Virus record (IMG/VR): IMGVR_UViG_3300033463_000022 | Location: 86,542 to 147,056 of that record | Origin: a virus | Taxonomy: Duplodnaviria > Heunggongvirae > Uroviricota > Caudoviricetes | DNA length: 60,515 nucleotides | Strand: one strand, 5' to 3' | Shown here: positions 4,187 through 49,182 of the stretch, one piece after another | How positions within the stretch are numbered: the first letter of the stretch is position 1 | How the letters are laid out: each line of letters begins with the position of its first letter | Notes under the pieces: generated by a model | What the model saw: the letters and a program-made list of their open reading frames with translations, nothing else | Told to the model about the DNA's origin: nothing | Database searches by the model: none | Program-made: the position numbers and the translations under genes

Positions 4187-4831
4187 ATGGAAGGTATTAG
4201 ATTTGATAAAGTCTCCCGTTTTAAAGATGTAGATCTGCCTCTCCCAACAAGAGGTACAGAGTTTTCAGCAGGATATGATTTTATTGTGGCTGAGGACGTA
4301 GTCCTCAAACCTTACGAACATGTCTCTACAATACTCCGGAACGGAGTAGCCCTTAATGATTACTGGGGATATACAAAACCAGTGACGCTACAAGAAATGG
4401 CTCAGGCCACGAAAGATCTTAAGGCCAAAGTACAGCTTGTATCCACTGGCATGAAGGCGTATATGCCGCAAGGCACTTACCTTGAACTTACCATGAGGAG
4501 TTCTACTCCCCTTAAGCACTGGCTCATTCTAGCAAACTCGAAGGGAATTATAGATGCCGACTATGTTGATAATCCCGATAATGAAGGCGAAATCTTTATG
4601 CAGATTATCAACCTTGCACCTTTTGCTATCCAGCTCAAGCGTGGCGATAAGATCGGCCAGGGTATCTTCCATAGATTTGAGATTACTGAAGACGACGCAG
4701 CAAAAGGTAAGAGAGAGGGAGGACTTGGTAGCACAGGTTCTACTATCTCCTAGGGTATGACTCAATTTATCAGACGAGAGATGGAAGAACGTGCGGCCGC
4801 AGGCTCTATGGTGTCTAGCGAGCAAGGTTAA
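4187..4831 (+). CDS. dut: Trimeric dUTPase; ends at TAG 4751-4753 in standard code, or 26 aa later at TAA 4829-4831 if TAG=Gln
   Basis: Motifs SAGYDF, MRSST, GIIDADY, KIGQGIF, REGGLGSTG. Start taken as ATG 4187 behind GAGGA. Confidence 0.93.
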
Positions 4832-4841
4832 GGTGGTTATA

Positions 4842-5315
4842 ATGAAAGTTCTATGTCTTGACCAAGCTACCAAAGTGAGCGGCTGGTCAGTATGGGATGG
4901 TTAGAAATTGGTAGCATAGGGAAAGTTCTCCTTTGAAGAGGACGGTAATCTAGTCTCTCGTCTGCACTAGATCAAGCTTAATGTCCTATAGCTTATCAAA
5001 GATTATAATATATAGAAGCTATATCTTGAAGATATTTAGTATCAACAACAAGCTGGAGTTACGACGTACAAGATTTTAGCCGAACTAATAGGGGTCTTAC
5101 AAGAGTTAGCTTTTGAAAATTAGATACCGTCTGAATTAGTACATTCGTAGTCTTGGAAATCATCCTGCGGAATTAAAGGGCGTGCTAGAGCAGAATAGAA
5201 GTAGAGCGCATAGTAGCACGTTAAATAGGTCTATGGTCTATCTGTATCGTAGGATGAAGCCGATGCCATTTGCATAGGCGAGCATGTTACAAGGCAAGAC
5301 GCATGTGCTTGGTGA
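4842..5315 (+). CDS. RuvC-like Holliday junction resolvase (TAG-recoded, 157 aa)
   Basis: Manual translation with TAG=Q: MKVLCLDQATKVSGW...LYLEDIQYQQ...QDEADAICIG...AW-TGA, showing the RuvC acidic motifs (D7, E, DxxD). 14 in-frame TAG; absent from the ORF track. Confidence 0.88.
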
Positions 5316-5400
5316 CCTCTTTGGGCAAAATAAAAAAAAATATCGCCCTCTTTTCTCATAATATGTAGAGACTATTATAAGAAAAGAGGGCGATATTTCA

Positions 5401-5886
5401 ATGGATATTGTTGATTTTATTTTGAAGTATTGGCTTGAGTTTCTACTAACTGCAATAGGTGCGGCGATAATAGCAAACTTTAAAAAGATTAAAGAAAAAA
5501 TTAAAGAATACAGAGAAATGAAAGAGACAGAAAGAAAAGAAAAATTTAAATAGAATTTATTAGAAACTATTAAGCCAATAGTGGCAGAATGTGTTGCCAA
5601 ATCAGATGCTACCGATGAAACTATCCAAGCGACACTAAAGCAGTTACAAGAGCAGCTTGGGAATCTCGAAGAGCGTGTTATTTTAATTACTTCTGGAGTT
5701 TTAGCCATGTAGGCGCAGGTGTTCAAAGGCGAATGTACCGCATTATTAAATCAAAAAACGCCTATTACATCCGACCAATACAACAAGTGCATGAACGACC
5801 ATGGTTTATATAATAGGCTTGGCGGCAACCACGATGGAGATTAGCTGTTTGAGCTAGTAACGGAAAAATATAAACATTAGCTATGA
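5401..5886 (+). CDS. N-terminally membrane-anchored coiled-coil protein, lysis-associated candidate (TAG-recoded, 161 aa)
   Basis: MDIVDFILKYWLEFLLTAIGAAIIANF TM segment; C-terminal YNRLGGNHDGD; 4 in-frame TAG; TGA stop before a terminator. Confidence 0.7.
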
Positions 5887-5920
5887 AAATAAAGGGGCTG
5901 TTTGAACAGCCCCTTTATTT
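5887..5920. terminator. Bidirectional intrinsic terminator between convergent units
   Basis: Perfect inverted repeat AAATAAAGGGGCTGTT-TG-AACAGCCCCTTTATTT. Confidence 0.85.
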
Positions 5921-6217
5921 TATTAATTGATTCACCACTTTAAAAATCTCTGGCCCAAAGACGGTTACAAAGCTTGCTAAAAATTCTTCTTCTTCCTCTG
6001 GAAGTGCAATACCATAGCTCGCAATTACAGCATGGGTTACTTCATGGCATATAACTTGAACAAATAGGGTATTTGTATTTACGGTTGATGATATATAAAT
6101 AGTATGATTTATACTATTACAGCATCCTATAGCTTTTCTGCCGTTTGGCTTTATCAGCTCGGGGTGATCGGGCGGGACAATGAAAATATGCCAAATCACC
6201 CCATTAATCTTAAACAT
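5915..6217 (-). CDS. Small HExxH zinc metallopeptidase-like protein
   Basis: VICHEVTHAVIASY...EEFLA; ATG 6217 overlaps the upstream stop. Confidence 0.75.
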   Translation of the reverse strand: MFKINGVIWHIFIVPPDHPELIKPNGRKAIGCCNSINHTIYISSTVNTNTLFVQVICHEVTHAVIASYGIALPEEEEEFLASFVTVFGPEIFKVVNQLIK

Positions 6218-6773
6218 TTGGATTGTTAACCAATTGTTCAACCTTGTTTGTTAAAGCCGCTAGTTTCTTATGGAGCATCATCTTTTCTTCTGGAGAGGCT
6301 CCACCAATCATTTCGGTAACATCCTGGCTTAGTTCGCCCATGTATTTCTCAAGTTCTTGGAGCTGAACTTCTTTGCCTTCGTGATGTTCTTTAGATTCCA
6401 TATACATTCGACGGGTGAGCGGACTACGCCCTTCGCGCAAGTCGCGGGCAACCGGCTCTTTATAGTCGTGGGGACGATCAAGCCAAGTTCCTTCACGCCT
6501 TGCAGTATCCATATAAGGATCGATGTATGGTTCCCAAGCTTTATCTTTCTCCCAGTGAGGAGTGTAATACCGACGAGATTCGTACTCTTCCTTCTCCTTA
6601 TTAGCGTCTTCCATGGCTTCAACAACAGAGCAGTAATAGCAGGCTTCAGCCATATCTTTGACCATATCGACAACCTCTCCGAGTTCATGAGTGTCGACTT
6701 TATCCTTGTTATGCTTTAACTGCTCATACGCTTCCTCAGCGACGATACACATTATTTCTTTAATATGTTCCAT
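6210..6773 (-). CDS. Acidic helical hypothetical protein (orphan operon)
   Basis: MEHIKEIM...; no TAG; TAA stop; ATG 6773 lies just after the stop of the upstream gene. Confidence 0.85.
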   Translation of the reverse strand: MEHIKEIMCIVAEEAYEQLKHNKDKVDTHELGEVVDMVKDMAEACYYCSVVEAMEDANKEKEEYESRRYYTPHWEKDKAWEPYIDPYMDTARREGTWLDRPHDYKEPVARDLREGRSPLTRRMYMESKEHHEGKEVQLQELEKYMGELSQDVTEMIGGASPEEKMMLHKKLAALTNKVEQLVNNPNV

Positions 6774-6777
6774 GAAA

Positions 6778-7200
6778 TTATGCCACCCTTTCCACAATCA
6801 AATTAGCGTTCTATACATTTACTGGGATAGTGCCAGTATTCTGAATAGAGAGTTGGGTGCAACAGCCGATAGGTACATCAATGAAAATATCAGCAGATAC
6901 ATTATTATAATTATCCACCGCAGTCGGGGTAGAGATCATAGAAGAGCTAGGAATGCCTTCCCCATTAAGGGAAATGGTTAGTTCGACAGGGCCTACCGTC
7001 TCTCCGGTGGGGACAGCAATATTGCTGCCATATGACACGCGAAAACGGGCCCTGCATTGACCATTGGCCAAGCCTCGGAGGGTTACTATCCCAGATCCTT
7101 CACGATGAAGGATCGAGGGGCAACCACGGACACTGACAGCATTAAACAGGACATCCTGATTTACTGCAACAGTCTGTTCAGCGACAGCTACAATTTCCAT
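6778..7200 (-). CDS. All-beta (BclA-C/TNF-like?) hypothetical protein, 140 aa with TAG read-through
   Basis: TAG 6811-6813 read as Q gives the natural ending VNVQNANLIVERVA-TAA, 4 nt before the next start. Fold call is inference. Confidence 0.8.
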
Positions 7201-7218
7201 GTTTATATTCTCCTTTTA

Positions 7219-8118
7219 TTAAGCTACGAGATTATTATAGCCGCAACCACATCCATAGTTAGTGGGGTAGCCGGCATAAGGATTTGCCACTGCATAAGCA
7301 GGGATGGGGTATGGAGCAACACGATTTACGATGTACTGAGTCTGAGCCGTATTATCAGCAATCAACTCACGAGTCTGGGTAGCCTGGGAAGCAGCCAGAT
7401 TCTGCATATTGACTTGATTCTGAAGAGCAACGTTCTGAGACTTGAGAGCATCGATTTCCTGCTGGCAGAGTTTGTCAAGAATAGCTTGAGTATTTGCATT
7501 GCTGGCTTCAAGTACATCACGAAGAGCATTGGAAACAGCATTGCGGTCTGCGCAAGCTTCGGTTGCAACAGTGTATTTAAGATCAGCAAGGCCAGCACGA
7601 TTCTCGCAGCAGCAGTTAGAAAGCTGACTGGAGACATTGGTCAAGCCATTAGTGATAGCTGTCTGAGTGCCAAAAGCCTGTTGCATGTTTGCCATCTAAC
7701 GTGCGTTATTGGATGCCTCAGCGCCAGCAAATCCAGATGCGATAGCAGCAGAGATTCCGTTGCCTGTCTGACAGATATTCTGGTTAACGCCTGCAAGTCC
7801 AAGGGCGGTGTCGCCAAACCCGCTAGTTACAGCAGACTGTAAGCCGTTAAGCTGATTAGAAATCTGCTGAGAGTTAAAGCCATTAGTAACGATGTTGTCA
7901 GTATTCTGGGTCATCATCCAAGGCCACATCATGAAGTTCTCGCCAAAGCCAAAACCATTCATACCAAAACCGCCGAAGCCTCCGCCCCAGCCACCAAAAG
8001 CAAAGAGAATGAATAGAATGAGCAGCCAGCTGCCATCTCCACCAAGGCCGAAACCATCAGCACCACGAGTTGCAGTTACAATATCAGATAGGGAATAACC
8101 ATTAGAATTATTGAACAT
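7219..8118 (-). CDS. Gly-rich, TM-containing, Gln/Asn-rich coiled-coil protein, 299 aa (two track ORFs joined at TAG 7696-7698)
   Basis: ORFs 7696-8118 and 7219-7695 are contiguous in frame: ...ASNNAR-Q-MANMQQAF...; AAGGAGG RBS at start. Confidence 0.88.
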
Positions 8119-8141
8119 GATTAGATGTTCCTCCTTTTAAG

Positions 8142-8336
8142 TTAGTGAAGACCTAATCTAGCTTTAAAAGAGGAAAACTCCTAGTCAAAGTCCTTTCCTT
8201 GTGATTGCATGAGATTGCGGGCAAGCGCTTCAATGCCCTACGTATCATGCTTTTCGATCATAGAAGCGAGGTTCTAAAGCATAGGATTTTGATTTTGTCT
8301 AAGCATCTGCATTAGTTGATTAAGATTCATAGGCAT
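8142..8336 (-). CDS. Small Met/Gln-rich helical protein (64 aa, 3 TAG)
   Basis: Manual translation MPMNLNQLMQMLRQNQNPMLQNLASM...DFDQEFSSFKARLGLH-TAA; AAGGAG RBS. Confidence 0.8.
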
Positions 8337-8350
8337 TATTTACCAACTCC

Positions 8351-8776
8351 TTAGAATTGATATACTTGCGGCGACTGAGATACTGCGGGCGTTTGAGCTT
8401 GCTTTGATGCGCTCTAGGTCTCGGCGGCCGCAAGTTTTCTTTCCTATCCCATACTCATTACCTCTTGTTGTAATTGTTTCATCGCAGTGTCGAACTCGTC
8501 GCGAGTGATGTACTGCGCAGGATTAACACTTTCGGGCTGCGGGATAGGACGCAGTTCATACAAATTAACTGTGCTTGTTCCATCTGGATTTATCTGCTTA
8601 GTATAAATCTTTTTATTGCCTAAATCTGGGAAATAAAATATCGAGCCATCAAAATCAACCGGCGTGCCTTTAACCTCTTCTATTGATGTCACAGGACGTC
8701 CTTTGAGCTGGCCGGCCTATTCCCTTATGGCTGCCTGGGGCTGGAACCAACCTGGGTAGTATGGATTATTTACCAT
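8351..8776 (-). CDS. Hypothetical protein, first gene of orphan operon (141 aa, 3 TAG)
   Basis: MVNNPYYPGWFQ...LKGRPVTSIEEVKGTPVDFDGSIFYFPD...; AAGGAG RBS; TAA stop. Confidence 0.85.
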
Positions 8777-8972: not shown

Positions 8973-9272
8973 ATGAATCATAACATTCAAACATCTAAAC
9001 TCATTCTTTTTCTTTCCTATGGCTGTGCTATTTTACTATCAATTACTGCGGTAGTTGCAACTTTTAAATAGCTTGACACTTCAGCTCTCCATATTCTTGC
9101 AGGAGTAGCTTGGGGCGAAGTTGCTGTTCACACCGCAGTTTATAGTATAAAAGCAAAAGCGGAAAATCGTCTAAAGATCTTGCTTTCTATGATTAAAGAG
9201 CTCTCTCAAAATGATAAGTTTGAGCCTGAGGTTATAGTATAGCTCTTCGAAGGCGTAACTAGGGAGGGATAA
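8973..9272 (+). CDS. Two-TM holin-like protein (99 aa, 2 TAG)
   Basis: AAGGAGG RBS; two hydrophobic helices, then YSIKAKAEN; stop lies 2 nt before the endolysin start. Confidence 0.7.
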
Positions 9273-9274
9273 AG

Positions 9275-10795
9275 ATGACAGAACAACAGCTAAGACAATG
9301 GATTGTTGATACTTTTATGTCTTATCTTGGTGCTAAACAAGGTTCAGCAAAGCATAAAGATATTATTGATACATATAACAACGATAAGCCATTGCCTCGT
9401 GGGTATAAAGTTTCTTATACCGATCCTTGGTGTGCAACTACGGTTTCTTCAATGGCAATAAAATGTAATATGAAGGATCTTATTCCGAAAGAATGCAGTT
9501 GCAAGGCTTAGATCTCCCTATTTCAGCAACTCGGAAGATGGCACGAGGATGATACCTACCGTCCGCAAATTGGGGATATAGTATATTACGACTGGGATGA
9601 TGGTCCTAATTATGCAACAACAGATGATAAGAAAGACCCTAACCACGTAGGTATGGTATGCGAATCAAATGGAGATTCGTTCAGTGTAATAGAGGGAAAT
9701 AAAGGTACACCTGGCTAGGTTGCTATTAGATATATGAAAGTAAATGGTCGCTATATCAGAGGATTTGGTCTACCAGACTATGCTAGTAAGGCAACTGAAC
9801 AATAGCCACAAGGACAGAAAGGTCTAAACACTTATACTAAAAATGGTGTTTTTGTAGTAGAAGTTCCCGTCAGTTGTTTTAAACTATCCATGCGAAATCA
9901 TAAAAAACGTGATATGGGACAGAACTATTGCAATGCCAATTTCTTTGCCACTTATTCAGAAGAAAATAAAACTGTTGACTTCACTTTGCCCGTTGGGCAT
10001 CTTGTATGCGATTATAAAGTAAATCCAAAAGAATCTAAGAGTGACAAGTATTGTGATAAATACTGTCACGAAAGAGGTACTTTTAATGATGATAAATTCA
10101 CCTTTGATTCAAATAAATGGTCTTTTGACAATGGATTCTTTGGTAACGCTCTTACCACACTATAGGTAAAGGGTGGCAAAGCCTGGATCAGCGACATTAT
10201 AAGTGTCCCCGCTGGACTAGATTATGCAGTAACAGGCATCCCAATTATGATTAAAGGCAAAGATGTGAGCTGGACTAATTATGTCAGGCCGCAAGGGTGG
10301 AATGGTTCCGAGTTATATGCTACTTCACATATCTTTGTAGGTATCAAACAAGAGTAGGCAGATATGATTTATGTCATGGGTTGGACGTCTAAAACTAATA
10401 ATATGGTATCTACTTCTGAAGCTTACAAAACATTTTCCGCACTCGGAATGTATAGCGTAATGAAGCTCGATGGCGGCGGAAGTTATTTCATTAATGCAAA
10501 TGGAACAACAAAAGCTACCACAGAGAATAGAAGAATAAATGCTATTATAGAGTTTGCGGCCGCCGGTACATAGTGCCCTTATACCGAGCCTTTTATTGCA
10601 CTTAAACAAGGTTCAAGTAGCACCACTGGTGTTAAATGGATACAATGGCAACTAAATAGGAAGGGCTATACTTGCGAGATTGATGGTTCTTTCGGGCCTA
10701 TCACAGACGTATTAGTGCGTCAATTCCAAAAAGCAAATAATATCGCGGTTGATGGCATCGTAGGACCCGCCACCCGCAAACTATTGAAAGGATGA
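9275..10795 (+). CDS. Modular endolysin: CHAP + phosphodiester-glycosidase(NAGPA)-like + PG-binding domain (506 aa, 6 TAG)
   Basis: DPWCAT...NHVGMV...VIEGN (CHAP); VMKLDGGGS (NAGPA-like); LKQGS...IDGSFGP...VDGIVGPATR (PG_binding_1-like). Track fragments 9275, 9890 and 10364 share one frame. Confidence 0.9.
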
Positions 10796-10802
10796 ATGAT
10801 TT

Positions 10803-11204
10803 ATGTCTCCAGAATTAATTCAACAAATCTTTACTTTAGTTCTCATTCCTCTTGCTGGAATCCTTGTAAGATTCTTGGTTGTCTTTCTAGAAGCTAAATG
10901 TACTGAGCTTCAAAGTAGAACAGACAATGAGAAAGCAAAGAAATATATGTCAATGATTACTGACACTATTACTCGCTGTGTTATTACCACCAATCAGACT
11001 TATGTTGATGCTCTTAAAGAACAAGGTGAGTTTGATGAAGCGGCACAGAAGATTGCTTTCCAGAAGACACTAAATGCGGTTATGTCTATCTTAACCGAAG
11101 ATACAAAGCATTATATAGAAGAAATTACAAGCGATATGCAAGAGTATTTGATCCAGTTAATTGAATCTGAGGTCAACAAAAATAAGCTTGTCGTCGAAGG
11201 ATAA
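10803..11204 (+). CDS. Holin (single N-terminal TM, LL-H-like)
   Basis: N-terminal hydrophobic helix; follows endolysin; no TAG. Confidence 0.75.
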   Translation: MSPELIQQIFTLVLIPLAGILVRFLVVFLEAKCTELQSRTDNEKAKKYMSMITDTITRCVITTNQTYVDALKEQGEFDEAAQKIAFQKTLNAVMSILTEDTKHYIEEITSDMQEYLIQLIESEVNKNKLVVEG

Positions 11205-11255: not shown

Positions 11256-12464
11256 TTACTAGATAACTGTAATTAGTATATCTATAGAAACTGCTCCAGT
11301 AGAAGTATCTCTAGTGAAGGTCAGTGTTTGGTTTTCTGTATCAACATCAAGACTAATAATGGTATTATAAGCAGTTTTATTTGTCAATGGAGTAATCTAT
11401 AATGATTGTCCATCCAATAGCCAAGTTTGCCCACTGAGTATTGAAGTGGAGCTGTTATTGCTAAAATTAATTACTCGTCTATATACTTTTAATGTTTCTT
11501 CATCGTTCTCTGCATTAACACTCAATGAATCAACTTCACTAATTGAAGTAGAAAATTGAATATTTTGCCATCCAGGCTCTTGTGGTAGCTTAGGTTGAGA
11601 AAACCAAAAGCTAGTAATTGAGCCACCACTTTTTTTTAGCGTCACAGCAATAATTTCGTTTGTAGATTCGGTTTTAACGTTTGGTGATAGCATATTAAAT
11701 ACTGCTATAATTGACGCCTCAACGTTTTCAAAATTGAAATTATACGTTCCAGCTACCGGAACCCCATTACGAGCTATCTCCACTGTATTCTGTCCAACGC
11801 CAGTTTGTTCTAAATATAATGTTTCAATCACCTTAATAGGATTGTTGAAATTAATTGTTCCTAATAGTTCAACATCAGTGGAATTAGTAGCTACATAAAT
11901 ATTGCCAGAAATTGAGATATAATAATCTCCAGCTCCCATTCCTTGGACGGTCACTTCTCCGTTAACGGGGTCATTACCACTGAAGAATTTTGCTGCACGT
12001 TGAAGCTCCAAGTCCATACTGTAGTCGCCGGTGGTTTCGTTTTCAATAAAAGATCCTGTAGGCGCCCCTGCTGGTGGCTTTGTTTGTTTTACGGTTACAG
12101 TATTAAATCTCGCCGCACGTGGAAAAGTACACCACAACTTAGGAGTTAAAGTCCCTCCTCCTTCCACCTCTACGGCAGGAGGGGTTTTTGCCGTAATCCC
12201 CTATGTCCTAACATCAGCAGTCCAAACTGGTTTCGCTCCGCCCATTTCTGCTATAAGGGCCAGCCCAGTTGGTGTCTTAAACCAGACAGAACTGTCATAG
12301 TTTTTATCATCTGTTCCTGGTATCTAGTATGGATCGGAATATTTAACCTCTACATATGTGCCAAGAGGAATATTATCTGCATCTGCCATCATCTAGGTTT
12401 TAGATGTATACTATCTATATATTTCGAAATTTCGACCAGGAGGTCCTCCGTAAAATGCATCCAT
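11256..12464 (-). CDS. Tail-associated/receptor-binding-type protein (402 aa, recoded)
   Basis: ATG 12464 with AAGGAGG RBS (MDAFYGGPPGRNFEI...); read-through of TAGs to TAG-TAA at 11256; last gene of the tail operon. Confidence 0.7.
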
Positions 12465-12478
12465 TTCTTTATACCTCC

Positions 12479-12739
12479 TTAATCTTCCTAAATATAATCT
12501 ATAATATAATAGGCGGGCGTGGAGCCGTTCGTTCCTATCCCTAGCTATCTAATATAAAAACCATCAAAGTCTAATTCATACAAACCCGAATATCCTATTG
12601 TAATAACGGTATTATTAATTGTGAACTAGTCGCCTCTGGAGGCTTGAATACCTAATTTAATAATAGGATTTGTGTCTAAATCTGTAGGGATCTGTCCGCC
12701 TGAGCTAGCTCCCATTTTATATATCTAACCCAATTTCAT
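12479..12739 (-). CDS. Small tail-region protein (86 aa, 4 TAG)
   Basis: Manual translation MKLGQIYK...KLGIQASRGDQFTINN...ITIGYSGLYELD; AAGGAGG RBS. Confidence 0.75.
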
Positions 12740-12753
12740 AATTCTTACCTCCT

Positions 12754-38925: not shown

Positions 38926-39409
38926 CAAACGTACTCTTTTCCATTATACTAGACCAGTTTGATGCGATTGTTCCCTTACTATCAGTTTGTTTTCTGCGTT
39001 TATAAAGACGTTGCTTATGGAGATTTTGACGTTCGGTTTCCTTCTTTAGCTCCATTAACTTTGCTAAATGGTTTGCTTGGCTCGTCATTTTAAAGTCGGT
39101 GCCAGAATACTTCTATCTAGTATTTTCAATAGAAGTAATCTAACGCTAGAGCCAGACTTCTAGCATACAAGTAGCAAGGATGTTAATTTCTTCCTCGGTT
39201 AAATGTATGGTATAGCCGGTATCGTCAAAATCATACAAAGAAAAACGCGGAAACTCGAAACCAGTTACCGCGTCTTTGAATATATTTTCTAGATCTGCTT
39301 CAGTGTCTTCCTTGGTCCATTCCATATACATGTCGTCGGTAATCTTACCAAAGAAGCAGTCATAAATATCGGTAAAGGGGGTTGGACCGTCCGTAACATG
39401 TATCGACAT
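38918..39409 (-). CDS. Head-tail adaptor-like protein (163 aa, 3 TAG)
   Basis: ...EVWLQRQITSIENTRQKYSGTDFKMTSQANHL... to TGA 38918; synteny after the capsid genes. Confidence 0.72.
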
Positions 39410-39424
39410 GTAGAACCCTCCTTA

Positions 39425-39988
39425 TTATTTCTTTTCGGGAAGTGTGATACTCGCCCGGCGAGCTGGCTCTTCAGTCTTAGGAGGAGCAACGCGTCTCTCT
39501 TTCTTTTCCTCTTGCTTAGGGGCGTCCTCTTCCTTGCTCATCTTCTCAAGCTCAATGGCTTTAAGCACGTCAAACTTCAACTTCTCCTTAATGGCATTGC
39601 ACTTATTCATATCATTAAGAGGAAGCTCAACTGCATACTTCTTAATCAAGGAAAGAACTCCGTCCGGAGCAAAATCAAGAGCATCCAATAGTTGGTCAAG
39701 CGAACAGCTAGGAAGCCATTGTTTAACCTGTTCAGAGGTCATAAAATACTCCGGCTCAGGCTTTATATTCATGGCTGCTTCAGCTGCTTCTGCATTATCG
39801 ATAAGAAGATATCGATTAAAGAGAGCCTTGCAACCATCGGTCTAACAAGCGGCTTCAATTTCGCCATAAGAAATCTTTTTGGTTTCTCCTGCCGCAAAAG
39901 TGCGCCAACGACCTTCTGTTTCGGGCACTGGATAAGCAACAGTATGAGAACTTCTGTTGGTTACCAAAAGAATAGTATCAGCATTCAT
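39425..39988 (-). CDS. Hypothetical head-region protein (187 aa, 1 TAG)
   Basis: ATG 39988 with AAGGAG; read-through joins track ORF 39425-39772. Confidence 0.78.
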
Positions 39989-40072: not shown

Positions 40073-41089
40073 TCAGAACGTAGCGCTAAGCTGCGTATCC
40101 TCGTAAGAGCAAATGTTATTGGTCATAACAACACCAACGCCGACCTTCTGATAGACCTGCATGTCGCGGGACCAATCCTCATTCTCGCGCTCGCGCATAT
40201 GCGCAGTGCCTTCGAAAGCGATCTTGACAGGCTTATCATTGTTGTTACCGGAAGGAATAATCCAAGCAAAGCCAGGATTAATAATCTTACGAGTGTTCAT
40301 CTCGTCCTCGAAGGACTGAGGAAGAATAACAACAGGGGTGCCCTTGTAGTTAGCAAGATAGCCATTCTTCCAGCGCTCGTTACGGATTTCATCAGAAACC
40401 CAAGCGGTCTAAGGAAGCATCTTGGAAGCGAACTCACGAGTACAATAGATAACGGAGTTACCGTAGGCATCAGTAACAGCAATAAGATTATCCATAAGAG
40501 TCTCATTGAAGCCCGCGGTGCTTACGATATTAGCGGAAGGAAGCTGATTAATAGCTCCAATAAGAGCCTCAGCGATCTCACGATAGATCAGTTCGTCCAT
40601 ACCGTCCATAATGATCTGAATGACTTCGGCGAAGTCAGCGCGGCCATCAAAGAACTCCTCGAAACCGATCTGAGCAGCGCCGCCGATAGCGCTAGTCTTG
40701 ACTTCATACTTGGTCTCACCAAGCTTGAAGACTTCATACACACCAGCAAGTCCAACACGGGTGATGAACTGCTTAGCACGAATACGGCCAACCTTACGGG
40801 TGAAGACCGCGGTCTCACCCTGCTTGAAGTTGCGGGTCTCAGCGAAACGGCCATAAGCGTTTTCAATACGCTGAGGAAGGATATCATTTACAGCCTCTTC
40901 AACGAGGGTAAAAACATCTTCCTTATTCTTGCGGTAAAGCTCATAAGTACCGCAGAGAGGCTCAAGCTCCTTACGAAGCGTCTCATTAATGGCATTGTAA
41001 TTGAGGGTTTCGCCATTATAGCTGTAATTAGTGGAAGGAGTAGCCTGAGCAGCAGCCTTCATTAGGCTAACAATCTGTTTAAATTCCAT
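40073..41089 (-). CDS. Major capsid protein (338 aa, single TAG at 40409-40411)
   Basis: Track ORFs 40409-41089 and 40073-40300 are in one frame; strong codon bias; size and position after scaffold/decoration genes. Confidence 0.85.
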
Positions 41090-41109: not shown

Positions 41110-41787
41110 TTACTGAATACGAATAATCTTAACGCCCGGCTGAAGATCAGGCATGTTATAAACACGAGCAACCTGCCAAATCATTCCAGTGGAGGCACTA
41201 TTGTTAATCTTGAGATAACCGTCTGTATCAACAACGAGCTTATTGCCTTCAGCTAGAGTTTCGGTGATCTCGCCAGTGGTCTGATCGGTAGCAAGCTTAA
41301 TGCAGTTAGTGGTGAAGATATCGCCAATATTAGTCTTGAGAACACGAGGAACCATAGTGGTACCAGTCTTCATCATACCATACTGAGCGGTACGGCCACC
41401 GGCAGCCATAGCAATTTCTACCATATTGTCGCCATTATCAGTATGACCATAGTGCTGATATGCAGAGTTGCCAGCAGCGTTATAAACGCGTGCCTCATAA
41501 GCGCTCTTCTTCATTGCGAAGTCAGCGTCAGTTTGATAGTCAAGATAAACCTTTACTTCGTTAAAAACAAGCATCCACTCGCCAGCGCCAGTGAAATTAA
41601 CTTCCTTATTGGCGTAGTCATACTTAACGAACTGGCCATTCTCAAGAAGATCAATATCGCTCTTAGCAGGAAGCTGAGCATAGATCTGGCCAGTGCGGCG
41701 GGCGGAGAGATGGTTAGGCTCTACCTGGCCGTAACCATACTGAACATAGTTAGCTTTAGGACTTAGGCGTCCGGTTGCGAGACTCAT
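41110..41787 (-). CDS. Capsid decoration/minor head protein
   Basis: 225 aa, no TAG, high-expression codons, between scaffold and MCP (inference). Confidence 0.7.
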   Translation of the reverse strand: MSLATGRLSPKANYVQYGYGQVEPNHLSARRTGQIYAQLPAKSDIDLLENGQFVKYDYANKEVNFTGAGEWMLVFNEVKVYLDYQTDADFAMKKSAYEARVYNAAGNSAYQHYGHTDNGDNMVEIAMAAGGRTAQYGMMKTGTTMVPRVLKTNIGDIFTTNCIKLATDQTTGEITETLAEGNKLVVDTDGYLKINNSASTGMIWQVARVYNMPDLQPGVKIIRIQ

Positions 41788-41788
41788 G

Positions 41789-43144
41789 TTAGAACTCCTC
41801 CTTATTCTGGATACGTCTGACGGCCTTTACCCACTCTGGCGCGTCATCAGCATCTTCTGTATTATTTAAATTAAAAGTAGTGGGCTGAATTTCTTGCTCT
41901 TCAGAATTCTCTTCCTCAGAAGCAAAGTTGATTCCATTGCGGAAACAATAGACGGAAAGCTGAGCTTCGATTTCATCAAGGCTATATTTATCTATATTCT
42001 CGACGCAATCTTTCTTTGCTTCGTCGTCAAGCATATAGAACTTAGCGATCATGTCCTCTTTAGCCTTACGCTCGCCAGCCAGTTTGTACTCACGAAGTCC
42101 AGCAACCTCACCATCAAGCTCGGTTTTCTCAGCCTCGAGAGCAGCATACTTGTCCTTGAGTTCATTATACTGAGCCTCAAGAGCAGCATAATTATCAGTC
42201 AATTCTTGATATTTAGCACTATAATCATCTTCGTCTTCTTTCTTATCTTCCTTTTTATCTTCTTCCTTATCTTCTGCTTTTGTTTCCTTTTTATCTTCTT
42301 TTTTATCCTTATTCTCTTTATCAGAATTGTCCTCGGGAACTTTCTTGACGAATTCACCTTCAGCAGGAGCGCTCTCTACGTCAGAGGTTTCCTCTGCCGC
42401 GAAAGTCTCCGTTACAGGCTCTTCGCCTTCAACAGGAAGGATATTCTTGTTCTCTTCTTCCATGTCAGAGCCTCCTTTAGTTATAGCTTCTTTTAGTTCG
42501 TTTATCATGGAAAACATTGTGGTCTTGAACTCCTCAAACTCTGGTGAGTTCAAAGAGAAAGCTGCAATGGAAGCTCCCTCAAAACAAGGTTCAAAATGTT
42601 CTCCAAGCACGCATAACTTTTTAATTAATGCCTCATTATAAATAAAAATTCTATGACTCGAATTATCACTGTTTGCCCAATAACCTGAAGAACTTTCTCT
42701 GTCGAGTTCCATAGATTGGTTATTACCTTTAGTGATCATTCTTTTACTCTCTGGATAAGCACCAGTCCAAATATAGCCTTCGGTACAAAGGTATTCGTGC
42801 TTTACACCATTATCATTAAACCACTAAAACCAAACCTGCGCGTCTGTGGGGACAAAGCCATAGGGAAAAGTGGTATCAATAAACTTTACGTCCCCATCAG
42901 ATAGATCTAGTTCCCTGTTGTGCTGTTCAAAGTCTTTTTCTTCTTTATTATAATATCCAACAATAGGAGAACCAGGTAGGTTACGTCCCATCTCAACGGC
43001 GACGTCCTTTGTAATAACTGTACTATTGCGGTTCGGCTATTGCCCAACCCAGCAGACTTTGATCTTAGCATGGCTGATAAATGGTGATATTTGAGTATTT
43101 TCAATAAATTCCATGGTGTTATTTACTGGAATACTTAAATTCAT
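41789..43144 (-). CDS. Prohead protease-scaffold fusion (451 aa, 2 TAG)
   Basis: N-terminal PNRNSTVIT...QSMEL...LGEHFEPCFEGA protease-like domain followed by an acidic coiled coil. Confidence 0.8.
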
Positions 43145-43155
43145 TTTATCACCCC

Positions 43156-44763
43156 TTAGCTCATAGCTTGTTTGTTCTTCAAGGTCTTATCTGACTTCTC
43201 TTGATCTTCCTTTTCTGGACGACCCGCTGAACCTTTAGAAGAACTCTACGCGGCATTGCCGCCACGTTCTCGCATTGCCTGCTGCTGACCAGCACTCAAA
43301 GTCGCACTAGACATAGGAGGAATCATACTATCAGCAAGATGTAGAACATCATTTTCAAAGTCGATAGTGGCGAGAATCATAGATTGAGACTGCCCAAGAG
43401 CAATCATTGGTAACATCTTACTAAAGCCGACCTAGACATTTTCTTTATACATCTTAGCGATTTCTTTATAATTAAACTAGGTGGTCTCTAGCATATTAAA
43501 TACAAAGATGTAATGATTTTTTCTATTATATTTCTTTTGAACGATTTTATTAAATACATTCTCTAGCTGGAGCTTTAAATCACGCAGATTGGCTTCATCT
43601 ACTAAAATAGAATTAGTAACAGCAAGGTTGCCGTCGGCATTAAAGAGGTTTTGAGAAACACCAGAGTTGTTATAAACAGTTCTTTCAACCTTCTCCAAAT
43701 CGTCTGTTGTAGTGGTAGAATTTCTATCTCTCATGTCTGCCACTTGAACATCGGCAAACGTGGTTAAAACATCTACACCAACTGCGCGCTTTAGCATAGC
43801 CACAGCATTATTATGGATATCCTTGGCTTCATCAACGTCAAAGATAAGCTCGCTATTTTTATCTAATGGAAGCTTTTGAATAATAATTTTCAAGAGCTAC
43901 TGCATTGTTTTCTTGCGATCAAGGTCCTACGCCATATCAAGATCGATAATAGAGGGGATAATCCCAACAAGAGGCGGGAAGCCGTCTTCACTCAATGTCA
44001 CTCTAATTCCCACACCAGGCTCTAACGCATACCAATAACTCTTATCGCCAGGATAATCACCCTTTAATTTCCCCTATCTATAAAGCACATAAGCTTTCTA
44101 AATATCTTGAGGGAATATCTTTAATATCTTGGCTCTATAAAGCGGATTAGGAAAATAAGCATCAAAGAAACGAAGATTTAATTCCACTACTGGATCTATT
44201 CCAGAATAATAGCGACATCTACAGTAGTCTGCGGGAAGCCTCTAAAAGGCGCAAAAATCGCCGTAGTCGAGAGCTATTGCATAGAATACTCCAGATTTCA
44301 TAATCTCAAGAGCAATCTATCCGCTAAGTCTCTTAACCTATGATTTATCTAAATACAGTAAAGCATCTGAAAACGCTTTTTCCAGCTTCTTAGAGTCTTC
44401 TGTCTTTTCTCTATAGGGCATTATGTACCAGTCATAACGATACATAAAAGCCATATAACGACATAAGCGATAGTATATTCCGCTAGATTGATAAAAGTAA
44501 TTAGATATTTCGCGAAGAGTCTATTCATCGCGACGATACATAGCTTGTAGAACAAAGTCCTTGTCACCATAAGAGCTATTCACTCTCTTATATGAACCTA
44601 GACTGAGGATGGCATCATCCACCGTCCGCAAGCCAACTTTCATCTTGGCGAAGTCTACATCACTAAACTCTGCCCAATCGTTTTCCCTATTAGATAAAGC
44701 AACGCCATCCTGCAAGAGATTAAAGCCTTTAGCCTTGATATCAGCCTGTCGTTGTTTAATCAA
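43156..44763 (-). CDS. Portal protein (535 aa, recoded)
   Basis: TTG start 9 nt after AGGAGG; track fragments 44521 and 43477 in frame; size and position between TerL and protease. Confidence 0.78.
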
Positions 44764-44777
44764 ACGGCTCAACCTCC

Positions 44778-45137
44778 TTAGGCAAGCCCAGCGCGGGTCA
44801 TAATGTAATCGTAGGTAATCAATGCTTCTTCGGTGTAGGGGATCTCGACTAGCTTGATCCCCTTAAAAGCACAATATCTACGCTTCTATGTATCATTATA
44901 TTGCTACTGATACAAACCGCGCATACCACCAAACTTAGAAACAGCTTGATAATGCTACTTGCCTTGATATTCAATTAAAAAATCAAGATTACCATCATCA
45001 TCAAAGACAGCGAAATCAAACTTTAAAGGTCTGCCCGCAGGAGTTTTTAATTCTGGAAAAACATACTCTTCAATAAAGTTGACGTCATTCTTCTCTAATA
45101 TTTCGTGTATTTTTATCTCTCCACGACTAGCTAACAT
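44778..45137 (-). CDS. Small PD-(D/E)XK (Vsr/DUF559-like) endonuclease (119 aa, 3 TAG)
   Basis: SRGEIKI...LKFDFAV...LIEYQGK-Q-HY...YNDT-Q-KRRYC. Confidence 0.78.
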
Positions 45138-45210
45138 ATTTCTCACTCCTTGCCTTTGAATTCTATTAAATTTAAAAATAGTTTACGATATTTTATCATG
45201 TCTTGCCCCA

Positions 45211-46962
45211 TTAATTCAAAAACATGAAGTCTCTAAAAGAGCGTTTACGCTTCTTCTTATTATCCTCTTCTTCACGGATATAGTAGATGCCATAGCATAG
45301 AGCAGAGAATTTATCCTTCTTAATATTCTTATTAGCTTGCTCAAGAATAATATTAACACCTTCATTTTTCTGTCGCAAGTTAAGAAGTTCTTCTTTTAAA
45401 ATATCCGTAAGGGTAAAAGGCATCAAGTATTCCGCACGCTCTTCAGGGGTCATAGCTTGACCCTTCTTAGTGCCCATCAAGCGCGCCTTAGCATGGCGCT
45501 CCTCACACAAGAACTTTACCTTACCGCTATCAAGAGCAGACTAGACAGCAGAATAAGCTTCTGTATTGATAGGAGCATTAGCTTTTATAGTATAAATAGC
45601 ATCATCTTCCGTATCATTCGTGCGGAATTGCTTATATTTCTACTCAGCATCTTGGTCGGTACCACCATACACGCCGAACGGAGGATAAATCTCTCCGTCG
45701 TCGTCCTGGTGGATAACCATAAAGTCCATAAGGCCTGATCCAAGACCGTTAGCATCAATTATGATGCGTTTGGCATTATACTTATAATATAGCTTCTTTA
45801 TTCGTAGTGCCTACAAACCATAATGTTCTGCTTCATAGGCATAGATATTCACCAACGATTTTATTGACGCCCCTTGTGCTTGCGGCGTTACCTTAAATAC
45901 GCAGATAACCGTCTAGCACTTGAAACGACCAACGTCGACGGATAGAATATAGTAAGCTTGTGCTGAAGACCTGCCGGAAGACTCGTACTCTGGCTGCTTC
46001 AAGATACGGTTGCGGTCAAACTTCTCACCATTAAAGAACGCATCCTCGACATTACCGGTCCAATGGCTGCAATATTCACGTTCAAAGCTAGCTTCATTGA
46101 ACGTTGGGTCTCGCCGCAAGTCTTGCACGAACGTTTTTTGCAGAAGTCCCATCAAGATAGGCACACGATAAGTACCGCCCATGATAAAAGCTTTATCAGG
46201 CTCAGTAATCATCTATACCAACGTCTAAATTAATTTTTCATAACTAAACGTGCCTTTATAACCAGCTGTGGTAATATATATCTGACTCTGATTCAACACT
46301 TCATCTTCTTGTACTGTTCCATCCAAACATCGTCTTGAAACGTTCATTGTAGGCAACAGAACTTCTTGGAGTATCTGCTGGTCGATACCGACGCACTCTT
46401 CCAGCACTCCGCCGTGTTTACGGCGACCTCTGGTGCTTTCGCGCGCCGCAAGGTTCTCAAAATCACTGCCATTTTTAAAAATAAATCTACAGTGGTCTTT
46501 ACCAACTTGTGTCTTTCCGCGTCGCCAATCTATCTCCCTCTTAAAAGCCGGTATTTTATTACAAATATCGTCGACCTTTTCTTGAAGGATTTGCGCAGCC
46601 TGCTCTTTTCCGCCAGCAGAAGAGAACAGATGTACGCCGGGGAATAAAATACAGCGAATCATCATAATAAGGACTGTTAAGAATGACTTAGAATACGCAC
46701 GAGGATATACAGCGTACACGTATTTATATCTCATTGCTACTCGTAGAAAAACTCGCTGATAGAAGAATAGGTGGAAGGTTAAGTCTTTCTCTTTTTCTTT
46801 ATCTCCACCCGTCTGCATAAAATCAATAAATAAATCGGGGTATTCTCGCCAAAAAGAAATATACTATACCAAAACAGGTTTTATTGCTTCAATGCGTTCT
46901 TCTGAAATACCAATTTTTTTTTCACTATGAGACGCTGTATCGAGTAAGGATTCAAGACTCAT
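45211..46962 (-). CDS. terL: Terminase large subunit (583 aa, recoded)
   Basis: YPRAYSKSF Walker-A-like, RGRRKHGGVLEE Walker-B, YITTAG, nuclease YILSVDVGR and KDKFSAL; three track fragments in frame. Confidence 0.9.
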
Positions 46963-48109
46963 TATCCTCACCTTCCTCATCATCGCTCATAGCATCAATG
47001 AAATCAACAAAATCTTTATCTTCAAGTTCTTTCTTGTCATACTCAAAAAGATTATCTTCTTCTTGTTCCTCAAAATCTTCTGGATTACCTTGAGCTGCGG
47101 CGATAGCTTCTTTTTCACGCTCCATGCTTTTCACAGCATTCTCAATCAAGTTACCAAGACCAAGCTCCTCTGTGACAAGATCATGAGTATATTTCTGCAT
47201 ATCTTGAATGACACGATCAGCTTTATCCATTGGTTCATCGGTATGATATCGAGGAATAAACCCGTCCTTCTCACACATAGCAACCAGCTCACCAATGGAG
47301 TCAACCGCATCAGTTTTATCTTCCTTGATCTAAGCGGCCGTAAGCTTTGCGCTAGTCATCAAGTCTTTGTACACCTTAGAAGCTTTCTAGAATCCCTCAA
47401 TATCTCCGGCGTCAATTAACTAATTAGCACGAAGCGAGGCTTTACAAATTAGTGTAAGTGTATCCTTTTGCCCAGCGCCCTGTATATCATAAGACCGCAT
47501 ATAATCATTATATAGTTGCTCTAATCTAACCCACTCTTCTTGACGATAGCCAGAACCCCACTTCATACGGAGATATATTTTATCATCATCCGAGAGCCCA
47601 AGATCTTCAATTTCAGGCTCTCCGGTGGTATCCCCGAATGTAGGCTGCTACGTAGCGGGCGCCGCAAGCCCCTACGGTTTCGGAGGAGTTCTATCTTTCG
47701 ATAACTCTTCCTCAATTTCCTCACCGGTGTAACCCTACTTCTGCATTGCTTCTACTTTTCTTTGCACTGCCTTTTGTTGAAGTTCTTCACTATCTTTCCA
47801 ATGGTATTTATTATACTATACCATTCGCATCTTTGCTAAATATCTTCCAATAATCGTAGTGCCAGTGAGTTTTTCTGGATCGGCGCCGTATTTTGCCAGA
47901 CAATCGTCCCATACATCTTTTATATAAGGTACATCAATTTCTTCCAATATCCACAAAAATGTATCGGGATCCCAGCTGTCTACCATTAAAGTAGCGCATT
48001 TCTTACATATATTCATCTTGCCGTCTGGATACTTCTCTAAGTTCCTAGACGAATAAAATTCTTTAACATCCTTTGTTAATCCGCATTTTTCACAAAAGTG
48101 AGTAGCCAT
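46952..48109 (-). CDS. Zn-ribbon protein upstream of TerL (TerS-like candidate, 385 aa, recoded)
   Basis: CEKC...CKKC N-terminus, acidic C-terminus; fragments 47816 and 46952 in frame; overlaps TerL start. Confidence 0.65.
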
Positions 48110-49182
48110 CAATTGCCCTCCTTTTCAATATTATGTTTACGGCTTCTACAACATTTACAGATGGAATACCAGCCATCCTTAGAGCCTCTATTTATTGAAA
48201 AGAAATCATTATGAGCTGGCTTAGTCTGCCCACATTTGGTACATTTTTTAAAGGGGAGCCCAAGACGCTTAAATTCGTGCGTGATAAAAGCTCGTTTAGC
48301 CTCTGCCGCGATCATTCTTGGGATTTTGTTTCTCCAAAGGCTAGAAATGTATTCTACACTATGCTTGATTCCAAACTCTACCTACAATGTTTCTTGAATA
48401 TCAATATTCTACACCCCATCAATTTTACATTCTACCAATCGTTCATATAATGGGTGGTCTTTAAGAGCATTAGTGCAGATTGAATCAAAAGCTTGCATTA
48501 AATACCATGTATCGCCTTCAAAGCGATCATAGCTATCTTCCTTTAATCGCGAATAATTACATAATATAGCTGATACAATTTTTGGATCCATTAAAGATAT
48601 ACCGTCAATTACAACTTCATTATCTTCATTCAACCAGCTATTATCTTCTATAGGGATATACGAACCAGAGGAACGAGTAAGCTTTACTGGAATTACAGGT
48701 TTTCTATAAGCCTACTTTATAATATATTGGTCTTTTCGCATATCAATTAATGCCTTTTTCATAATAAAAGCATCTCTCCCAGAGGTGTGCTTGATAGCTG
48801 CGTCCCAGTCATCAATAGAGGAACGAAGCTACCCTAAATAGGGAACTTGCTCTAAATCATCTTTACTAATTGAAATTTTAGGTTGGAATATTACATTTTT
48901 GTTTTCGTTTATAAGATTATATATACCATCTTCGCCATTTTCTAACTAACAAACTAGCCCTTCAAAAGAGGTCTCGCGCTTTGTTACCGTAGCCATACGA
49001 TTTTCTGTCAAGACCTTTTTCTCTTTCTTCTCTTGTTTCTCCATGCAGAGAATTAAATAATCAGCTAGAGCTTCCAAATAGTTAGGAGTTAGCTCAGAAT
49101 TTTCTTCGACTATTTGTTCAACAAGAGCAAGACGCTCTGAGGGAGATTCAAGTGTATAATCAAGTTTAGGCACTTTCATCAT
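48109..49182 (-). CDS. Putative DNA-binding regulator with HTH-like segment and C-terminal Zn ribbon (357 aa, 5 TAG)
   Basis: Fragments 48946, 48409 and 48109 in one frame; IDGVQNIDIQETLQVEFGIKHSVEYISSLW resembles a sigma-region-4-type HTH; CTKC...CKCC. Confidence 0.65.

Follow-up and report, generated by a model that had tools for sequence, protein, structure and literature searches.

The late genes of a siphovirus from the bovine gut, whose virion module is probably of the SPbeta type, very probably (probability of about 0.93) use TAG as a sense codon for glutamine, decoded by a tRNA(CUA) that the phage itself encodes, with the early genes following the standard code and the host most likely belonging to the Clostridia or Bacilli. 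The genome is 147 kb long, and the window, i.e., the whole stretch of 60,515 nucleotides analysed here, corresponds to its late half. This change of the genetic code is well supported and is of a type already known from the recoded gut phages of Borges et al. (10.1101/2021.08.26.457843) and from phAss-1.

In-frame TAG codons in the late genes

The comparison of translation tables 15 and 11 suggested by an earlier note on this DNA was carried out as greedy ORF coverage of positions 4751-49206. Table 11 gave a coverage of 0.576 in 76 pieces with a median of 94 aa; when TAG was read as sense (Q), coverage rose to 0.967, in 38 genes with a median of 238 aa, whereas the other reassignments reached 0.629 (TGA=W) and 0.712 (TAA=sense). 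For the whole genome, the coding fraction increased from 0.748 to 0.912 under TAG=Q. The earlier note nevertheless went too far in stating that most of the window would be missed under standard annotation: table 11 covers 58%, albeit as fragments, and a public protein collection already renders TAG as Q in its translations of relatives.

The curated set of 36 late genes, with 14,342 codons, contains 259 in-frame TAG codons, distributed in 29 of the genes, and not a single in-frame TAA or TGA; all 36 end in TAA (27) or TGA (9) and none in TAG, as the earlier note had claimed. Since TAA and TGA amount to 7.3% of the codons in the two other frames of the same genes, a frame of 2897 codons without either would arise by chance with a probability of about e^-218; the observation that these frames are split by TAG alone is thus confirmed and lies far above chance. 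An AGGAGG-type RBS is found at 24 of the 36 longest-ORF starts. Matches to known families run across the TAGs in the genes for the portal, the tail tape measure protein (TMP), the endolysin and the RuvC-like protein; in the portal, the match covers residues 78-534, TAGs included. The portal genes of 41 relatives carry from 0 to 17 in-frame TAG each, and no TAA or TGA. The features of the window are the following.

94-4185, plus strand: early genes, TAG-free and in the standard code, comprising NrdD (94-2169), NrdG (2463-2960) and five small ORFs (PHROG 487, E 8.5e-175; PHROG 626, E 1e-44)
4172-4753, plus strand: dUTPase, most likely ending at the TAG at 4751-4753 (Pfam dUTPase; standard-code homologue)
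4842-5315, plus strand: RuvC-like Holliday-junction resolvase, 14 TAG in 157 codons (PHROG 827, E 1e-17; Pfam RuvC)
5401-5886, plus strand: hypothetical gene, 4 TAG; its homologue in a relative (G005) adjoins the RuvC gene there
5915-8776, minus strand: late genes including 6778-7200 (1 TAG), 7219-8118 (1 TAG, 19 CAG) and 8351-8776 (3 TAG) (PHROG 20016, 16490)
8973-11204, plus strand: lysis cassette formed by a small ORF (2 TAG), the endolysin and the holin
9275-10795, plus strand: endolysin with CHAP and PG_binding_1, 506 aa, 6 TAG
10803-11204, plus strand: holin, 0 TAG
11256-24007, minus strand: tail, baseplate and fibre genes of 402 aa (6 TAG), 86 aa (4), 631 aa (14), 945 aa (15), 123 aa (0), 300 aa (2) and 1717 aa (24) (PHROG 32343; PHROG 1887 tail protein)
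24036-32729, minus strand: TMP, 2897 aa, 92 TAG (12 tape-measure PHROGs, best E 8e-55)
32836-39988, minus strand: tail and head-completion genes, including 36322-37071 (10 TAG) (PHROG 2729, E 2e-56)
35239-36300, minus strand: tail tube, 0 TAG, 6 CAG, 0 CAA (56% identity to a gene of a relative, L044, recorded as Pfam YomU_Tube)
40073-41089, minus strand: major capsid protein (YonB-like), 1 TAG, 12 CAG, 0 CAA (82% identical to an L044 gene with Pfam YonB; tblastn matches to major capsid proteins annotated in Bacillus phages and, at 47%, to phAss-1)
41110-43144, minus strand: two head genes, of 225 aa (0 TAG, 11 CAG) and 451 aa (YonD-like, 2 TAG)
43156-44772, minus strand: portal protein, 538 aa, 11 in-frame TAG (PHROG 2739, E 4e-79)
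44778-45146, minus strand: HNH/homing endonuclease, its gene located between those for portal and TerL, 3 TAG (PHROG 9084, E 6e-29)
45211-46983, minus strand: large terminase (TerL), 590 aa, 7 in-frame TAG (PHROG 15503, 24618, 26582; 81% identity to a 583-aa L044 gene)
46952-49206, minus strand: the two genes that open the late block, one YonG-like of 386 aa (7 TAG) and a 365-aa match to a 'sigma factor' PHROG (5 TAG) (PHROG 3314, E 3e-59; PHROG 5767, E 2.5e-38)

A minus-strand ORF at 5160-5726 that overlaps the gene at 5401-5886 is probably spurious, and codon 8 is probably the true start of TerL, which gives 583 aa. The gene sizes previously assigned to the TMP, the fibre (1717 aa), TerL (583 aa from the start of its homologue), the portal and the endolysin match those listed, and the five peptide contexts quoted with them are all present: EDI-Q and RAE-Q-K in the RuvC-like gene, and the others at 7678-7707, 6781-6819 and 44949-44972.

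TAG as a probable stop codon in the early genes

The eight early genes of the window, dUTPase included, have no TAG among their 54 Gln-type codons (TAG, CAG and CAA), versus the 259 TAG of the late genes (Fisher p 2e-11). The large replication genes of the genome likewise have none, nor does a large early gene of 1298 aa that has 34 CAA. The early genes, devoted to nucleotide metabolism and replication, are readable in the standard code of the host, and some of them appear to stop at TAG with a TAA or TGA as a backup a few codons downstream.

The end of the dUTPase gene had been called ambiguous; from comparison with its homologues, the TAG is most likely a genuine stop. The match to the Pfam dUTPase domain runs to residue 187 (model position 127 of 129), the homologue in a standard-code relative (G004, 181 aa) ends about 4 residues ahead of the TAG, and reading through the TAG would lengthen the protein by 25 residues, as far as a TAA at 4829-4831. 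If this TAG is a stop, the codon has two meanings in the genome. Like dUTPase, the genes at genome positions 16464-17840, 66755-66985 and 71841-72377 have a TAG stop that coincides with the ends of their standard-code homologues or lies no more than about 4 residues away; for the TAGs near the C-termini of late genes, the standard-code homologues align through to the end of the protein. These alignments support the view that TAG would act as a stop in early genes and as a sense codon in late ones. In standard-code relatives TAG is a rare stop, used by 3-5 of 112-127 genes.

The amino acid encoded by TAG

The residue that corresponds to TAG was established by comparison with two relatives, G002 and G004, that use the standard code (no gain of density under TAG=Q and no tRNA(CUA)); a tally from the protein database was excluded as circular, because that collection already reads TAG as Q. 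Among 417 column observations opposite TAG, Gln was the commonest residue (93), followed by Glu and Lys, and in columns of conserved context it accounted for 59 of 135, the self-conservation of CAR-encoded Gln being 35% for comparison. The log-likelihood was -1052 for Q, -1193 for E and -1197 for K. At the codon level, the columns of the 41 related portal genes that align with the TAGs of the window contain 126 CAA, 47 TAG and 39 CAG, and two of them hold these codons exclusively. In the RuvC motifs EDIQ, RAEQK and QDE(A/S)DAICIG, Gln is opposite the TAG of the window in three of four relatives; in G002, the most distant one, this holds for just one of those sites. The non-circular tallies of codons and residues, plus the tRNA(CUA) of the phage, bear out the assignment of TAG to Gln made in the earlier note. 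For crAss-like phages, mass spectrometry is presented as proof of the same assignment by Peters et al. 2022 (PMC9523058).

The tRNA with a CUA anticodon, which the earlier note proposed to look for in the rest of the genome, is encoded at genome positions 40226-40299, outside the window (ARAGORN; Rfam 40.8 bits). In a comparison of five genomes, this tRNA was present in the three recoded whole genomes and in neither of the two with the standard code. It has unpaired U1 and U72, G73, U35, and C2-G71 and C3-G70 in the acceptor stem, and its nearest match is the tRNA-Gln(CUG) of a relative, with 70% identity. These two acceptor-stem pairs depart from the identity set of E. coli GlnRS. An enzyme of the host is predicted to charge the phage tRNA(CUA) with Gln. 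In many Bacillota, Gln-tRNA is made via GluRS and GatCAB, a route that would have to accept a CUA anticodon. The other two genes that had been proposed, for a Gln-tRNA synthetase as well as for a release factor, were not found: the genome record, which is 85% complete, encodes no release factor, no GlnRS, GluRS or other aminoacyl-tRNA synthetase, and no PylRS-type domain (PF01409).

Uneven TAG load among the late genes

The load of TAG differs widely between genes. Within the window it is densest in the RuvC-like resolvase (8.9% of codons), for which the orthologues of four relatives contain between 0 and 2 TAG each, and a GIY-YIG nuclease elsewhere in the genome reaches 7.5%. At the other extreme, the major capsid and tail tube genes have 0-1 TAG. 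Of the 54 Gln-type codons in these and two other CAG-rich genes, 2 are TAG; for the remaining late genes the figure is 257 of 622 (p 1.7e-9). According to the model of Borges et al., full-length late proteins would require an active suppressor tRNA, and TAG would act as a timing gate. This gate may be graded, with the most abundant proteins avoiding TAG and a potentially harmful nuclease carrying the heaviest load. However, the holin has no TAG, and the gating role is one that we infer.

As a speculative extension, the TAG load could be a graded, gene-specific lock beyond the early/late switch, with potentially self-harming nucleases at its extreme and the most abundant virion proteins poor in TAG. 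If so, nucleases able to damage the replicating DNA of the phage would be held back by TAG. With 92 TAG in the TMP, read-through of at least 97.5% per codon is needed for a full-length yield of 10%, and, as part of the same speculation, this may point to a near-total neutralisation of the host RF1 by a candidate phage factor that is neither a release factor nor a synthetase. The low TAG content of abundant proteins could alternatively be plain codon bias.

Alternative explanations

A doubtful alternative to the timing gate and to the graded lock is that TAG was reassigned with no regulatory role, as a near-neutral synonym of CAG and CAA that drifted in after the gain of the suppressor tRNA where selection for translation speed is weak, so that the patterns described reflect codon bias. 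It would fit the fact that the share of TAG follows that of CAA and reaches its minimum in genes rich in CAG, whose expression is presumably high, as well as the TAG-free holin; moreover, recoded relatives have RuvC orthologues with just 1-2 TAG, which means that the heavy load has not been conserved, and the portal tree requires at least 6-8 flips of the recoding state. Nevertheless, drift does not account well for large early genes that lack TAG in spite of their many CAA, for the several early genes that keep TAG as a stop, or for the position of TAG as the commonest Gln codon in many late genes (in the TMP, 62 CAA and 19 CAG accompany the 92 TAG), which goes beyond tolerance.

It is very improbable that TAG encodes a residue other than Gln, be it Glu (from a non-discriminating GluRS with no amidation), Lys or pyrrolysine, or Leu, Ser or Tyr. 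ARAGORN labels the tRNA(CUA) 'Pyl', a label taken from the anticodon alone, Glu and Lys rank next opposite TAG, and the suppressor tRNAs from two relatives possess long variable arms and, in a crude global alignment, look like tRNA-Leu; on the other hand, Gln is ahead of Glu by 141 and of Lys by 145 log units, the invariant portal columns admit Gln-type codons only, the PylRS-type, GluRS and GlnRS domains are absent from the 85%-complete genome record, and the discriminator is G73, where bacterial tRNA-Leu and tRNA-Tyr have A73. The missing PF01409 and the deficit of 145 log units for K rule against pyrrolysine in particular. We consider it highly improbable that TAG is already a sense codon in the host, or that RF1 is missing there, with the phage mirroring the host and no code switch during infection; no bacterium is known to read TAG as Gln. 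Although the near-complete read-through demanded by the TMP and the lack of a phage release factor would suit such a host, the early genes wholly avoid TAG and stop at it where their homologues end, the phage has its own tRNA(CUA), the code switches back and forth between standard and recoded among close relatives, and Borges et al. report standard-code hosts (10.1101/2021.08.26.457843). Finally, damage, either in a decaying prophage or by sequencing or assembly error, is favoured by nothing but the bare presence of stop codons, and is refuted by the exclusive occurrence of TAG, by the recurrence of the pattern in about 56 of the 74 related loci, which come from many studies, and by independent Logan contigs from the probable source sample, in which the TAG-rich DNA is identical (0 differences, e.g., over 24036-29058).

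Host and relationship with known phages

The cultured relatives identified by portal and capsid all infect Bacillota, and the MAG bins into which the nearest relatives fall belong mostly to Clostridia; both agree with the AGGAGG-type RBS and with the Firmicutes (Bacillota) host suggested previously. The class of recoded phages to which the earlier note likened this one holds for the change of TAG to Gln but not for the lineage, which is not that of the crAss-like or Lak phages but that of a large siphovirus with a probable SPbeta-type virion module and a distant kinship to phAss-1. Phages with recoded stop codons, including code 15 (TAG to Gln), were reportedly described by Ivanova et al. in 2014. 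The same TAG pattern, and the timing model, were presented by Borges et al. for recoded gut phages (10.1101/2021.08.26.457843). Common to these code-15 phages and the one studied here are the concentration of TAG in genes for structure and lysis, the standard code in those for replication, a phage-encoded tRNA(CUA), variation of the code within a clade, an animal gut habitat, and TAG as a rare stop in standard-code relatives. In contrast, the present genome record lacks a 'code-change module' of release factor or synthetase, and within the window the heaviest recoding falls on the resolvase instead of the lysis cassette. The resemblance to the Agate clade of Borges et al. consists of genome size (147 kb) and habitat.

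The best named phage match for both capsid (47% amino-acid identity) and portal (35%) is phAss-1 (OQ749652; Babkin et al. 2023, PMC10607447), a 136 kb siphovirus of the human gut for which the genus Phassvirus was proposed; TAG occurs in its genes for TerL, portal, TMP and fibre, it carries tRNA-Sup(CTA) genes and no dedicated synthetase, and Gln was deduced from alignments. The present phage shares these traits of a large recoded gut siphovirus, but one suppressor tRNA was found here and three there, and its habitat is bovine instead of human. Members of Phassvirus are 83-86% identical in nucleotides among themselves (PMC10607447); given the portal and capsid identities, the two phages are not of the same genus, and membership of Phassvirus is rejected.

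With the SPbeta-type siphoviruses of Bacillota (Bacillus SPbeta, Enterococcus EF1, Brevibacillus Sundance and the Lactococcus 949 group), it shares a genome in the range of 125-170 kb and a very long TMP. In addition, close relatives' orthologues of the capsid, tube, YonD-, YonG-, YomW- and YomV-like genes carry SPbeta Pfam families: YonB, YomU_Tube, YonD_N, YomW and YonG_N are recorded for orthologues 56-82% identical to the corresponding proteins of the window, which themselves gave no match in the local copy of Pfam. The cultured members of this group differ in using the standard code, as annotated, and show 24-37% identity to the present phage.

Late genes and their reading frames

The window covers bases 86,542–147,056 of a single IMG/VR virus record. 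The record of 147,056 bp is linear, 85% complete according to CheckV, and has a GC content of 41–42%; the public runs that contain it are bovine-gut metagenomes only, with no RNA run listed among them. The window carries the following genes:

94–4753, plus strand: NrdD, NrdG, small ORFs and dUTPase
4842–5315, plus strand: RuvC-like resolvase
8973–11204: lysis cassette (CHAP/PG_binding_1 endolysin, holin)
11256–49206, minus strand: complete virion and packaging block

The last of these comprises tail and fibre genes, a tape measure protein of 2897 aa, the tail tube, head-completion genes, the major capsid protein, the portal, an HNH endonuclease, TerL and two upstream genes. Close relatives carry orthologues with 56–82% identity, whose recorded Pfam families are YonB, YomU_Tube, YonD_N, YomW and YonG_N (SPbeta).

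The earlier note had proposed that the late region is recoded, its genes being interrupted by TAG only, and this was borne out. The 36 curated late genes (14,342 codons) contain 259 in-frame TAG codons, spread over 29 genes, and not one in-frame TAA or TGA; they terminate at TAA (27 genes) or TGA (nine). TAA and TGA together account for 7.3% of the codons in the other two frames of these genes, and the chance of a 2897-codon frame lacking both is about e^-218. An AGGAGG-type ribosome-binding site precedes 24 of the 36 longest-ORF starts. The gene sizes and all five peptide contexts quoted in that note were also found in the sequence.

Coding density under table 15 versus table 11 gave the same picture. 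For a greedy set of non-overlapping ORFs in window 4751–49206, coverage was 0.576 with table 11, in 76 pieces with a median of 94 aa and a maximum of 354 aa, and 0.967 with TAG as Gln, in 38 genes with a median of 238 aa and a maximum of 2898 aa; as controls, reading TGA as Trp gave 0.629 and TAA as sense 0.712. The flanks of this region were barely altered by reading TAG as sense, and over the whole genome coverage was 0.748 versus 0.912. On the minus strand, stop-to-stop ORF coverage increased from 27 to 51 kb, the longest frame reaching 2915 codons. Matches to protein families continue across the TAG codons, as in the portal, where the match to PHROG 2739 (E 4e-79) covers residues 78–534 and includes all 11 TAG. 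Independent Logan contigs, from the probable source sample, are identical to the TAG-rich DNA across kilobases; therefore, these codons are not an assembly artefact.

Since table 11 splits the 44-kb late region into 76 fragments, the tape measure, fibre, portal, terminase, endolysin and resolvase genes would be missed or split by it. TerL (window 45211–46983, minus strand) matches PHROG 15503 over 245 positions in its N-terminal half and PHROG 24618 over 230 positions in its C-terminal half, and these two families look as though recoded terminase genes, cut into pieces by table 11, had been their source.

Several ORFs were not retained. The minus-strand ORF 5160–5726 was dropped in favour of the plus-strand RuvC gene and 5401–5886; the minus-strand ORFs 49430–49888, 51932–53263 and 59390–60370 contain TAG but match no family or relative, and were not counted as recoded; ORF 57966–58790 was left uncounted, having no family match and just partial tblastn matches in the two standard-code genomes G002 and G004. 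The 443-aa ORF at 51932–53263 is open only when TAG is sense and contains seven TAG, one CAG and no CAA; it may be a recoded gene outside window 4751–49206, or spurious. A NADAR-domain protein (Pfam PF08719, E 8e-27) is encoded at window 50224–50784, plus strand, and is also found in the recoded relative G005.

The residue encoded by TAG

A tally of database proteins at the TAG columns of the portal (120 homologues) gave 63% Gln, but it was discarded as circular because these proteins had themselves been translated with TAG as Gln. It was replaced by tallies at the DNA level and against standard-code relatives. In 41 relatives from IMG/VR, the portal gene has from 0 to 17 in-frame TAG and never TAA or TGA. 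Opposite the 11 portal TAG of the window, these relatives have CAA 126 times, TAG 47 and CAG 39, with other codons scattered behind. Two of the columns are occupied exclusively by CAA, CAG or TAG, and in them the eight TAG-free portals have Gln.

The whole genomes of four relatives were also compared, of which G002 and G004 served as standard-code references because they gain nothing from reading TAG as Gln and lack a suppressor tRNA(CUA). All proteins of the window's own genome, with TAG translated as X, were aligned to the table-11 ORFs of these two, yielding 417 TAG-column observations in 33 genes. Gln was the commonest residue (93), followed by Lys (38), and in conserved context it stood opposite TAG in 59 of 135 cases, which exceeds the 35% self-conservation of ordinary CAR-encoded Gln. 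Using empirical substitution frequencies, the log-likelihood was −1052 for Gln, −1193 for Glu and −1197 for Lys. At three conserved motifs of RuvC, Gln is found opposite the window's TAG in three of four relatives; G002, the most distant of these, keeps it at only one of the three. The assignment of TAG to Gln made from the sequence alone is upheld by the homologues; it holds and has good support, and this kind of system was already known.

Two meanings of TAG in one genome

The eight early genes of the window have no TAG among 54 Gln-type codons, versus 259 of 676 in the late genes (p 2e-11), and the large replication genes elsewhere in the genome have none in frame. The dut gene stops at TAG immediately after its Pfam domain, at the same end as its standard-code homologue, and three further early genes end at TAG where their homologues end, with a TAA or TGA 0–25 codons downstream of these early TAG stops. 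For the late genes, standard-code homologues align past the TAG codons near the C-terminus up to the true end. This split agrees with the model put forward by Borges et al. (10.1101/2021.08.26.457843), in which the host code suffices for the early genes and the late genes depend on a change of code.

Decoding apparatus

The genome has 25–26 tRNA genes. A search for a tRNA with a CUA anticodon located one outside the window, at genome 40226–40299 (ARAGORN; Rfam 40.8 bits); in this tRNA, U1/U72 is unpaired, the discriminator base is G73 and the CCA is encoded. Its closest match among the 109 tRNAs of five genomes is a tRNA-Gln(CUG) of a relative, and, as judged from sequence, these features fit a Gln identity without proving it. 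BLAST of this tRNA against the genomes of five relatives gave no useful match. Calling by ARAGORN on whole genomes detected a tRNA(CUA) in all three recoded genomes and in neither of the two standard-code ones. A synthetase or release factor, for which the earlier note had also suggested a search, was not found: in the 85%-complete record no match was detected to the RF-1 (PF00472), GlnRS/GluRS (PF00749) or PylRS/PheRS-type (PF01409) domains.

The suppressor tRNAs of the recoded relatives G001 (84459–84549) and G005 (144887–144974) measure 88–91 nt and combine a long extra arm with a 4-bp D stem and G73, versus a length of 74 nt in the window's genome; the suppressor tRNAs of this clade may not have a single shared origin. 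Two other tRNAs lie outside the window: a class II tRNA with a long variable arm and a UUG (Gln) anticodon at genome 26824–26909 (8825–8910 in locus L048), and one with an 8-nt anticodon loop (GTTT) at genome 26586–26659 (L048 8587–8660).

Directly upstream of the late block, at window 51016–51540 on the plus strand, there is a TAG-free gene for a PTH2-type peptidyl-tRNA hydrolase (Pfam PF01981, E 5.7e-19). The enzyme could serve to recycle peptidyl-tRNA lost at TAG codons. PTH2 is present in this genome, in G001 and in the portal-clade loci L054, L044, L046 and L047. As a helper of the code change it was rejected, given that no association with recoding emerged: G005 is recoded but lacks it, and so do almost all of the other portal-flanking loci (present in 1/34 recoded and 0/7 standard).

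Uneven load of TAG

Over all late genes, TAG makes up 38% of the Gln-type codons, but the capsid, the tube and two other CAG-rich genes have it at only 2 of 54 (p 1.7e-9). At the other extreme, the tape measure gene contains 92 TAG, and RuvC 14 in 157 codons, where its orthologues have 0–2. A full-length yield of 10% from 92 TAG demands a read-through of at least 97.5% per codon, and nothing was found in the genome analysis that accounts for how the host RF1 is overcome; the 92-TAG gene puts a sharp number on this question. These figures are also relevant to a possible tuning of the expression of individual genes by TAG density. Outside the window, a 319-aa gene (genome 67315–68274) has 24 in-frame TAG (7.5% of its codons) and a full-length homologue in the standard-code G002.

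Relation to known phages, host and clade

The recoding phenomenon, its mechanism and the regulatory model have already been published, by Borges et al., by Peters et al. (PMC9523058) and, for the distantly related phAss-1, by Babkin et al. (PMC10607447). Identity to phAss-1 is just 35% in the portal and 47% in the capsid, which places the window's phage in a different genus. What is noteworthy here is the dual use of TAG, its extreme load in the resolvase and tape measure genes, and its avoidance by abundant virion proteins.

A Firmicutes (Bacillota) host had been proposed as well, and every cultured phage matched by portal or capsid indeed infects Bacillota (Enterococcus, Bacillus, Brevibacillus, Clostridioides, Lactococcus or Staphylococcus). 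The MAG bins of relatives are mostly Bacillota, with Bacteroidales, Methanobrevibacter and Gastranaerophilales among them too; this mixture makes MAG taxonomy weak evidence of the host.

The clade was sampled as 74 portal-bearing loci, from IMG/VR contigs and mis-binned MAG contigs of ruminant, rabbit, chicken and human gut, and approximately 56 of them are TAG-recoded. On the portal tree the code state requires at least 6–8 changes, and the window falls inside a six-row clade with good support, in which every row is recoded. It thus adds a well-documented case to a large clade of gut siphoviruses (cattle, sheep, rabbit, chicken, human) in which the code flips repeatedly. TAG is the least frequent stop in the two standard-code relatives (3–5 of 112–127 genes), a rarity in keeping with the evolutionary route that Borges et al. 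propose.

In two loci of the same portal clade, L057 and L033, coding density rises when TGA is read as Trp and not when TAG is read as Gln (0.79 to 0.88 and 0.84 to 0.90, respectively), and from these densities TGA recoding may also occur within the clade. With regard to the ends of the record, classed as linear, genome 1–127 recurs at window about 59238–59364 (genome 145779–145905), approximately 1.2 kb before the record end, and the final 30 bases recur at genome 220–249; repeats are thus found near both ends.
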